From NCBI GenBank assembly GCA_951406725.2, contig OX597837.1, positions 40,672,001 through 40,736,000 on the forward strand: a stretch of DNA of 64,000 nucleotides, in the 5' to 3' direction. Origin of the DNA: Octopus vulgaris. Its lineage: Eukaryota. Under the pieces are notes generated by a model that was not told where the DNA came from, searched no databases, and saw only the letters and a program-made list of their open reading frames with translations. Of the stretch, positions 26,641 to 57,017 are shown one piece after another (the stretch's first letter is position 1; each line of letters begins with the position of its first letter). Made by a program: the position numbers and the translations under genes.

Positions 26641-27425
26641 TAGTTAGTTAGTTAGTTAGTTAATTTGGCTCAAAAGCAAATAGCAAGGCCATGTAGGGGG
26701 ACATGGAGTTAAGTACAGGGTGGTGTTCATGTAAAGAGTTCAGGCCACTTGAGGTCCAGGGAGACTTTGAACAAAGCGGTCGTCGGCATCTTCAGCATCT
26801 CGTCTGGCAGCTTGTTCCACGGATCCGCAACCCGGACGGAGAAAGCTCCTCTCCTTCGATTGAGATGAAATCGTCGCAGGTAGAGCTTTTCGGAATGACC
26901 CCGCAGCCGACGCCCTGGAGCAGGAGTGAAGAACAGCTCTTTCGAGAGGTTACACTTTCCTCTTATGATGTTGTGGGTGAGAATGAGATCACCACGGCGG
27001 CGACGTTTATCAAGAGAATAAAGGTCGAGCGTCCTCAGCCTTTCTTCATAGGACAAATTTTTGAGACCATGAACCATGCGGGTAGCCAGCGTCTGGACTC
27101 TTTCGAGATGCTGTATGTCTTTGAGGAGATAAGGAGAAGAGGCTTGAATCCCGTACTCCAATATGGGTCTCACCAGCGTGACATAGAGTAGTAGGAATAT
27201 GGCTGCTGTGAGCATTCCGAATGACCGTCGAATCAAGAACAGAATTCCGCGTGCTTTGTTGGCAGCATGGACGCACTGGGCCGAAGGCGAAAAGGAGGAA
27301 TCCACCAACATACCCAGGTCCTTTACCTGATCGGTCCTCTCCAGCAGCAGACGACCCGGCTCGAAATCAAGTTGAGTTGCAGGATGAGAGCCAACAGGCA
27401 GATGACAGCACTTTGACACGTTCAG
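26641..27425 (-). mobile_element. 5'-truncated CR1-clade LINE: post-RT ORF2 C-terminus, 3' UTR and (TAAC)n tail
   Basis: Uninterrupted frame NVSKC...VKDLG..VD...LYVTLVRPILEYG...LERVQ...RRRRGDLI...RLRGH...FSVRV..WNKLP, stop at 26727. Inserted in a (TAG/CAG)n tract. Confidence 0.95.
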
Positions 27426-27475
27426 ACACAGTAGTAGTAGAAGTTGCAGCAGCAACAGCAGCAGCAGCAGCAGCT

Positions 27476-27533
<58 letters not shown>

Positions 27534-28710
27534 CAGCAGCAGCAGCAATAGTAGTAGTAAGAGGAGGAGGAGGGAGGGAACTATGCTGGAAACTCTCACT
27601 TGTTGAACCTCGTTGTAACTTTGGCCATTACGAATAGTAAATTAAAAATACTAATAATTGGTTCATTAAAATATTTGGGTATTGTCGGTTATTTTCTTCC
27701 CTCAAGATAGCTTGCCTTCTACTTGCAGTATTATTACCATCATCTTTGTTACTCTAATTATTCCATGTATCGTTGACAATAAGATATAGCTGGTGTGCTG
27801 CAACTGGGCGTCTTGCACTGAAGAAGCGCAGTATGATGAAAAAACGTGGACATCCTAATCCCGGTTCTCGTTTGCTATAGTATGTGTGTGCTCTCAGTAC
27901 CGAACATTTATATCTGTGAACCTCACAAGTTGAATACCGCAGTATATAGAGATAGCCCCACACACAACACACAAAAACACACACGCAAACAAAGTGACAA
28001 GACTATTGAGTTAAGAGATTTGCCGGTGATTACAAATATGTGGTTGAGTTGGAGTGTTGGTTCAGCTGTCGATGCACAGACCCAAATGGGAGCGTATATT
28101 CACCGTAAGAATCACAGAGGAAGAATCTTTGGGGTGTCTAGTAAATCTTCACTGACCCACTAATGGATTGGATTTAGAGATAATGCATCAGTTTTTTTTA
28201 TTTTTGCTTTTTCTTCGAAAACCCCTGTATTTCTTGTTGTTGTATAAGTTGGTACATAACGTAATGCAAATATGACGAAGAGTACGAAGGAAAATTTATA
28301 GCCAGGGTACAAGAGCTGCAAGTTCCGCATTAATTCACCAGAAATGATCTCTTATTCCTGGACATTTGATGTTACATTTACATGAGCTGGGCGTATGACT
28401 TTTGTTCCCCATCCCACAGAACAATATCAGATTTATAATATTTATACCGAGTTTCTGTTTTAATTGGGGTGTTTACCAATATTCTTTGGTTTTAGAGGCG
28501 TGAATACCTGATATTTCTCACATGATTGTTATGTAAACATCAGAACAATCCTTCTTGCAGGTAGCGTTATAAATGGTCTTTGCAACTATAACATGCCACA
28601 TACATAGATGTATATATGTATGTACGTATGTATGTATGTATGTATGTATGTATGTATGTATGTATGTATGTATGTATGTATGTATGTATGTATGTATATA
28701 TGTATGTATG

Positions 28711-39388: not shown

Positions 39389-39417
<29 letters not shown>

Positions 39418-39421
<4 letters not shown>

Positions 39422-39917
39422 CATAAGGGACATTAGCCAACTGAATATGGCTAGGGACAGGGCAGGGTGGTGGGGGTGTCACTGTTGCATTTAGCCCCAG
39501 GCGAACATCAACGTCACCAGATAGGCCGACATAATCACGGCGTCCTCTATCTTGCAAAGGGAGATCATTCCCCAAGAAGCGGATGCCACACACGGACCTA
39601 GGTTTCAAGGTGTATTGCCTATTATCAACGTGTGGTAGGCACCGCTTCTCGACGAACGACACACCGTGCAAGATATATATAAAGATTTTCAAGTAAATAC
39701 ATTTACTGATAATAGGCAATACACCTTGAAACCTAGGTCCGTGTGTGGCATCCGCTTCTTGGGGAATGATCTCCCTTTGCAAGATAGAGGACGCCGTGAT
39801 GGCGTCGGCCTATCTGGTGACGTTGATGTTCGCCTGGGGCTAAATGCAACAGTGACACCCCCACCACCCTTACCCTGTCCCTAGCCATATTCAGTTGGCT
39901 AATGTCCCTTATGTTAT
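39418..39917. mobile_element. Fold-back element with 210 bp arms (39418-39627 and 39707-39917, about 5 differences) and a 79 bp spacer, carrying a hammerhead
   Basis: Direct reverse-complement match of the arms. The left end abuts (TA)n. Confidence 0.9.
39589..39634 (-). ncRNA. Type I hammerhead with U3-A8 covariation
   Basis: CACACG-UUGAUAA-U-AGG CAAUACA CCU-U-GAA-ACCUAGGU-C-CGUGUG. Helix I is a perfect 6 bp, helix III is palindromic, and the triplet is GUC. Confidence 0.75.
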
Positions 39918-40257
39918 GGAGCAGTCACTGTCTATATCTCATTTAGAGAATTATTATTGCTATATATATATATATATATATATATATAATGTAATTTAGA
40001 TTCAGTTGACTTAAATACTTAAATAGAAGCACCTTGTTAGGACGAACTAATTTACACACTCTGACAACATAAGGTGAGTATCAAACTCTACACAGAGTAT
40101 TGTTTCACCTGATATCTCGCAGTGTGGAGGCACAAGGCCCAGTGTTTAGAGCAGCGGGTTGTGGTTGAGGGATCGCGTGTTTTAATCTAATTATGCTAGA
40201 CGTCGACCCCCTATAGTCTTACCACTAATAAAGGAATGTTCTCAAGAAAATTTAGCA

Positions 40258-40788
40258 AATGAAAGGATGAAAGGCAAAGTCGACCTCGGTGGAATTTGAA
40301 CACGGAATGTGAAGACGAATGAACTGCCTCTAAGCTTTCTCCCGGCGTTCTAACGATTCTGCCACCTCGTTGCTTTAATAATAACAGTAATGGTTTCAAA
40401 TGTTACCACAAGGGCAGCAATTTGGCGGGGAGTGGATGAGTCGATTAGATCAGCCACAGTGCATAACTGGTACTTATTTTATCGACTTTGAAAGGATAAA
40501 AGGTAAAGTCGACCTCGACGGAATTTGAACTCAGAACGTAGCAGCAGACGAAATACCTATTTCTTTACTACCCACAAGGGGCTAAACATAGAGAGGACAA
40601 ACAAGGACAGACAAACGGATTAAGTCGATTACATCGACTTCAGTGCGTAAATGGTACTTATTTAATCGACCCCGAAAGGATGAAAGGCAAATTCGACCTC
40701 GGCGGAATTTGAACTCAGAATGCAACGGCAGACGAAATACCGCTAAGCATTTCGCCCGACGTGCTAACGTTTCTGCTAGCTCGCCGCC
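40258..40788 (-). mobile_element. Cluster of Meta/MESC-domain SINE copies ending at (TAA)n
   Basis: Three occurrences of GAAAGGATRAAAGGYAAAKTCGACCTC. A head (AGGCGGCGAGCTAGCAGAAAC) lies on the minus strand at about 40788. Confidence 0.85.
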
Positions 40789-40812
40789 TGAATAATAATA
40801 ATAATAATAATG

Positions 40813-56605: not shown

Positions 56606-56698
56606 GAAAGACCGAAAGGCCAAATCGACGTTAGATAATAGAAAGCGTTTTGGCCGGTTTGCTAAAGATACTGCAAGCTTCCAGCAAAACTGTAGACC

Positions 56699-56954
56699 AG
56701 AGTAAAGATTGTTTGCCAACATAACATGGCAGTCCTGGTTTAGGACGAATGTTGCTGTAATTTAGCCCCAGGAGACATCGTCTCCAGCTGGCTATACTAC
56801 ACGATCTGTGTCCTTATATTTCCTTGTTCGAAAATATTAGGACACAGATCATGTCGTATAGCCAGCTGGAGACGATGTCTCCTGGAGCTAAATTACAGCA
56901 ACGTTGGTCCTAAACCAGGACTGCCATGTTATGTTGGCAAACAATCTTTACTCT
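56699..56954. repeat. Palindrome of about 256 bp (arms about 123 bp, about 6 mismatches, loop about 10 nt)
   Basis: AGAGTAAAGATTGTTTGCCAACATAACATGGCAGTCCTGGTTTAGGAC is mirrored exactly at the right end. Confidence 0.95.
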
Positions 56955-57017
56955 AGAGTACTGTTGCTGAATATCTCTAATTGAGAGATTTACAAATTGT
57001 AATTTTCCAAAAGTGTA

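Follow-up and report, generated by a model that had tools for sequence, protein, structure and literature searches.

A fold-back hammerhead repeat in Octopus vulgaris as a probable retrozyme insertion with an inherited U3-A8 core

A pair of near-perfect inverted arms with a hammerhead motif at the breakpoint, the core of which carries U3 and A8, raises three questions: what kind of element this is, whether the letters at positions 3 and 8 arose in this copy or were inherited, and whether the fold-back arrangement acts on the ribozyme. The window in which it lies is the whole stretch of 64,000 nucleotides of contig OX597837.1 of Octopus vulgaris that was analysed. We are fairly confident that the hairpin is a retrozyme insertion, likely written by a Penelope-like RT/GIY-YIG protein, and that its U3-A8 pair was inherited and is likely to be ancestral. 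The locus itself is ordinary, a truncated insertion of an element of known kind, in other words mobile-element debris; the part that deserves experiment is the rooted series of changes at the 3-8 pair, together with its links to age and array length.

Structure of the window element and its hammerhead motif

The earlier note had described a 500-bp fold-back at 39418-39917; the fold-back stands, its extent does not, as the right arm carries a 44-nt tail that reaches 39961 (Table 1). The stretches 39418-39627 and 39707-39917 form a 210-bp alignment with four mismatches and one indel, in keeping with the roughly five differences counted before, and the 79-bp spacer between them is nothing separate, since the left arm simply continues through it in the 5' direction; the C at 39706, adjoining the junction at 39707, derives from the opposite arm. 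Compared with family copies, the arm differences form two clusters or events, in the area of 39463 and at 39531-39533, each private to one arm. The copy is young, though not among the youngest fold-backs, since its arm divergence of 1.9% ranks 74th of the 82 fold-backs measured, the median being 0.7%.

Table 1. Features of the fold-back element and its flanks (positions in the window).
Feature	Positions	Strand	Description
Left-flank (TA)n target microsatellite	39392..39417	.	
Whole fold-back element	39418-39961		one insertion of a 355-362-bp non-coding repeat with a hammerhead motif
Left arm (L001)	39418..39710	-	unit positions 63-355; 3' end at fixed end A; bears the sole complete hammerhead motif
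Four-tract G4 motif	39454..39476	+	antisense to the ribozyme; family feature
Extended type I hammerhead motif	39572..39652	-	bulged helix I, core, helix II, palindromic helix III
C17	39595	-	
GAAA	39606-39603	-	
Core U3-A9	39628-39622	-	
Helix I 5' strand	39634-39629	-	
Inversion junction, 5'-to-5'	39707..39710	.	4-nt microhomology
Right arm	39707..39917	+	unit positions 146-355; begins at U4; helix I 5' strand absent
Right-arm copy of G4 motif	39858..39881	-	opposite strand to the ribozyme
44-nt tail of right arm	39918..39961	+	positions 1-44 of the next unit; terminates at fixed end B
Right-flank (TA)n target microsatellite	39962..39988	.	

The arms measure 293 and 255 bp and hold one complete ribozyme motif and zero full units, and the ORF check found no open reading frame within the element. 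A retrozyme is called active in bioRxiv 10.64898/2026.07.22.740005 when it has at least two consecutive complete ribozymes; the window copy has a single one and is a truncated member. With one ribozyme and no full unit, it should be unable to release a monomer and is probably a dead end, the fold-back being a by-product rather than a switch.

The minus-strand U3-A8 motif was located as claimed, with core, GAAA and C17 in place, and the right arm does start within the core without the 5' strand of helix I, leaving a single complete copy. The core letters are U3 U4 G5 A6 U7 A8 A9, helix II has three base pairs closed by U.U, helix III has two and a palindromic loop, and the core belongs to the type I hammerheads as their published U3-A8 variant. 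As an Rfam search of 39400-39940 gave no hammerhead match at E<=10 (its four matches are microsatellite or hairpin noise), the hammerhead call rests on motif, invariance and covariation. The eight remaining core bases do not vary in any of the 37 rows compared; outside the ribozyme, 126 of 309 positions are likewise invariant. Covariation was found on proximal helix I, helix II and the palindromic helix III; the helix I pair 141-182 is C-G in 112, U-A in 13 and U.G in 13 of 138 units, and helix III is palindromic throughout, in three forms.

A 2017 paper is said to report that hammerhead variants of Penelope-like elements (PLEs) cleave as dimers. In the present family, the monomeric hammerhead fold is predicted to lie 6-9 kcal/mol above a rod-like fold in all core classes. 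The ribozyme of a tandem array likely cleaves weakly, as a dimer via the palindromic helix III, and would thereby give unit RNAs or circles; the kept palindrome is consistent with the dimer model of PMC4209133. Contigs of sequencing runs guessed to be RNA contain U3-A8 pieces and the C3-G8 type, with circle, multimer and DNA indistinguishable there. A 390-nt contig of the C3-G8 type (run X1, record 5, matching L013:1571-1635) has the length expected of a closed 360-nt unit in a 31-mer graph, a length by which circle, multimer and DNA are indistinguishable.

The G4 motif that had been noted in each arm, on the strand opposite the ribozyme, is present in both; within the family it lies on the antisense strand in 125 of 138 units and on the sense strand in 0, and it is absent from the third-family unit L242. 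Elsewhere in the window, the repeat scan of which is dominated by microsatellites, a second fold-back (56660-56955) represents a related older repeat family, resembles the L230-L238 family and has a short stretch in common with the 3' part of the unit. Three related SINE-like repeats lie downstream of the element at 40230-40790, and a minus-strand fragment at 26727-27641 resembles the 3' end of a LINE reverse transcriptase frame.

The repeat family and the history of its 3-8 pair

A DNA search of the 2.8-Gb genome returned 198 matches from 40 of 1,120 candidates scored. The unit is 355-362 bp long, non-coding and arranged in short tandem arrays of up to nine cores per arm; a non-coding tandem unit of 170-400 nt with a hammerhead in each is what characterizes retrozymes at the family level, and by its repeat organization the family fits the metazoan non-LTR retrozymes. 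The 140 distinct places mapped were picked by similarity or exact core patterns and for this reason belong mostly to the U3 classes; they comprise 97 divergent fold-backs, 41 single-strand places and two others.

With the same 3' flank required, 136 cores are U3-A8 and 166 are U3.G8, and the U3-A8 pair is fixed in a subfamily and not private to the window. The non-U3 cores number 1217, and the first 100 listed are all C3C4-G8. Most cores of the family are indeed C3-G8, as would be expected had this copy mutated away from a C3-G8 consensus, but its letters were inherited. In a sister family about 20% away, 104 cores were found, 98 of the 100 listed being U3-A8 and two C3.A8, and a third family about 34% away has U3-A8 at all seven of the seven places fetched. 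One tree was built from 59 of 138 units and a second from 37 units, with the core columns dropped and the third family as root; the gappy units L142 and L155 were omitted from distances and trees, and L079 and one L107 unit from the tree subsamples. Both trees lead from U3-A8 through U3.G8 to C3C4-G8, the core-free one requiring one change at position 3 and one at position 8, and AU tests reject a basal C3-G8 group (p 4e-5) and a basal G8 group (p 5e-5). With two outgroup families at U3-A8, this core is likely to be the ancestral one and not derived in the window lineage, so that the direction proposed in the earlier note, in which C3 and G8 had been changed, is reversed for this lineage. We infer that the changes from U3-A8 to U3.G8 to C3C4-G8 occurred in this order in one sister lineage.

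For the step from UU to CC, no intermediate subfamily was found among the matches: the three C3U4 matches were every one created by an inversion junction, and U3 with a letter other than U4 occurs in one match and in the single copy L063. Loose ends of contigs from runs X16 and X2 carry the U3.G8 form in a sister-like lineage as well, which implies that position 8 changed more than once. An older degraded family (L220-L238) has mixed U3-A8, U3.G8 and C3.A8 cores.

The end branches of C3-G8 units are the shortest (0.0004-0.003 against 0.006-0.008; 12 and 109 units), and the C3C4-G8 branch is, as far as the sequences tell, the youngest and most abundant. It has 1.96 cores per arm compared with 1.2 in the U3 classes, and at least three cores in 8 of 47 arms compared with 2 of 83 and 0 of 84 (p about 0.001), a comparison in which contig C1 supplies all C3-G8 rows, older arrays are undercounted by the exact patterns, and subfamilies recombine (L107).

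It is possible, at somewhat less than an even chance, that this history reflects relaxed selection on the 3-8 pair with the insertion mechanism unchanged. Cleavage would then be dispensable for copying, U3 and C4 cores nearly inactive, the series of changes the result of drift or editing in a master lineage, and the C3C4-G8 burst otherwise caused. PLE insertion in vitro was indifferent to ribozyme mutants (PMC11167929), and U3.G8 has spread as far as U3-A8 (166 and 136 cores; mean arm 377 nt in both), as relaxed selection would have it; yet U3-A8 is retained by three young families and a candidate PLE, and families about 34% apart have preserved the other eight bases of the core, both helices I-II and the palindrome of helix III. 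The C3.A8 mismatch, found in 5 of 12 printed loci of an older related family, amounts to 4 of 1217 cores (C3C4.A8) in the young branch. With respect to activity, PMC3088659 describes natural U3-A8 hammerheads, states that they had earlier been shown to be active in vitro, and reports that U.U at 10.1-11.1 and U4C are tolerated, though a viroid study cited there found U4C to lower the activity in vitro, which again would suit relaxed selection. A pairwise mutational scan carried out on a type III hammerhead (PMC9901934) found that only the G3-C8 swap restored activity, which was low in the other single and double mutants of this motif.

A rather unlikely reading, offered here as tentative, is an ordered walk from U-A through U.G to C-G (with U4C), each step a mobile subfamily and partly driven by A-to-I editing of fold-back dsRNA, in which the regain of C3-G8 would have switched on efficient cleavage and circle formation and hence rolling-circle copying, longer arrays and about four times the cores of both U3 classes combined. 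The trees with their AU tests, the age of the branches and the array lengths are in line with such a walk. Substitutions along the series lean towards A>G/U>C (11, compared with 3 G>A/C>U; singletons 27 and 33; Fisher p 0.036), which hints weakly at editing; the A>G surplus in run X6, which has no DNA control, does not enter this count.

The family offers nearly isogenic natural ribozymes with different 3-8 pairs, for which copy number, array length and age can be measured, and this makes it testable whether hammerhead cleavage and circle formation matter for Penelope-driven spread, a role that is in question because of the ribozyme mutants without effect on insertion in vitro. Rooted cases in which a catalytic tertiary pair has changed via a wobble state are rare, and the family adds one; if C3-G8 did bring a gain of activity, array length would be a genomic read-out of ribozyme activity.

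Insertion and the inversion junction

In 87 of the 97 fold-backs, one outer end lies at unit position about 355 (A) and its counterpart at about 40-44 in the unit that follows (B), 44 nt apart, giving the Penelope-type arrangement of an inverted 5'-truncated copy with a tail at one end. TA stands on both sides in 79 of 97, and among the first 100 listed cores per class, 59 of 59 two-strand loci are in 5'-to-5' order. Inverted 5'-truncated copies of EN+ Penelope-like elements with a 30-40-bp tail at one end are described in PMC8557442, and according to PMC11167929 a PLE protein cleaves and extends both strands, two internal RT starts bound the tail, and insertion in vitro proceeds with mutated ribozymes. 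The PLE-type inverted insertion proposed in the earlier note is borne out, its assignment as a pseudo-LTR of an autonomous PLE is not: the sequence stems from a 355-bp tandem unit that is non-autonomous and has no ORF.

The PLE papers and the footprint of a candidate element suggest a model of two-end priming. A Penelope-like RT/GIY-YIG protein would cut the TA repeat at the target, RNA would be copied from each of the two DNA ends, starting at two fixed points separated by 44 nt, and two 5'-truncated arms would result, joined back to back. The candidate PLE, a young element of this genome, has a 753-aa open frame with an RVT_1 match (E 3e-7) and a sub-threshold GIY-YIG match (E 0.0016, 19.2 bits with a cut-off of 22.6), and its ends lie in TA, 45 nt apart; some 132 nt ahead of end A there is a hammerhead-like motif with U3-A8. 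The element is no more than a candidate partner, since alignment of its repeat with the unit (TA masked) found nothing alignable beyond short end motifs.

A young Penelope-like family (L276-L285) has frames of 746-782 aa in nine of ten loci, a 4.6-kb repeat unit and a hammerhead-like motif that is U3-A8 with an extra A after GAAA. L230/L246 was rejected as an autonomous parent, being an older retrozyme-like fold-back that adjoins a PLE fragment. An APE-type LINE (zf-CCHC, Exo_endo_phos, RVT_1; L239:2682-7991, also L240 and L243) joins the third retrozyme family at an identical point just upstream of helix I in three places, with a 17-bp target duplication at L239, and likely targets retrozymes there.

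The breakpoint is not fixed, the junctions being variable over the 97 fold-backs. Arm 5' ends are spread across the whole unit; the entire ribozyme holds 24 of 194 (21.9 expected), and no pile-up was found at the cleavage site (4 of 194 compared with 4.4 expected in the 97 fold-backs). Ends in the core number 8 of 194 compared with 3.8 expected (p 0.04), a count that includes the window copy, L058 and L059, which were sampled for having a junction in the core; minus these three loci, our own arithmetic gives 5 of 188 compared with 3.7 expected. The junction of the window copy looks like a chance truncation in the core that would have been resolved at the 4-nt microhomology.

It is very improbable that the core breakpoint and the antisense arm are a functional arrangement that gates the ribozyme. 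In a read-through minus-strand RNA, the probability of helix I is predicted to be 0.00, compared with 0.96 without the opposite arm, and the ribozyme is predicted to be fully buried co-transcriptionally as well, so that the sequestration by the antisense arm proposed in the earlier note holds as a predicted lock. A functional role does not follow: burial is expected from any fold-back, the junctions vary, and an RNA that starts in the spacer is predicted to keep helix I free (0.96).

The arms of L107 differ in their cores, one being U3.G8 and the other C3C4-G8, and were probably copied from two RNA molecules; of the 46 loci that have complete cores on both strands, this is the one clear case; at two further loci of the 46, the arms differ by single letters. 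A DNA-level MITE-like fold-back or an inverted duplication after insertion would also yield near-perfect inverted arms within a TA target, but is hardly credible, being already contradicted by asymmetric ends and tandem arms: the arms are unequal, reach up to 1,130 nt and may thus exceed one unit, stop at two distinct fixed end points, and at L107 come from different core subfamilies.

Relation to known elements

In the literature searched, which was mostly open and the supplements of which may hold similar variants, no paper was found on a cephalopod retrozyme or on a series from U3-A8 through U3.G8 to C3-G8. The U3-A8 hammerhead is not new and has already been published (PMC3088659, PMC4209133).

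The metazoan non-LTR retrozymes (PMC7229834; bioRxiv 10.64898/2026.07.22.740005; axolotl HHR_Amex2 / Rtz_353), for which a PLE has been proposed as carrier (PMC7229834), likewise have a tandem non-coding unit of about 350 nt with one type I hammerhead each, and HHR_Amex2 (PMC7229834) shares the 2-bp helix III and the U.U at the base of helix II. Their cores are canonical in the accessible descriptions, whereas the cores here are U3-A8, U3.G8 or C3C4-G8, and the family occurs mostly as two-armed fold-backs with a PLE tail, an arrangement not mentioned in the accessible portions of the descriptions compared. EN+ Penelope-like elements (PMC8557442; PMC11167929) likewise have an inverted truncated copy, a tail at one end, AT-rich or microsatellite targets and two fixed starts; in contrast, the family described here has no ORF, its tail is 44 nt long, and its unit cannot be aligned with the candidate autonomous element's pLTR. 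Natural U3-A8 hammerheads (PMC3088659; the Cercyon min-HHRs of Schistosoma mansoni with about 1,300 hits, PMC4209133) show the same 3-8 covariation, whereas in Octopus vulgaris the U3-A8 core lies within an extended motif of type I, the helix I of which is long and bulged, and is linked by trees to probable U3.G8 and C3C4-G8 descendants within one genome.
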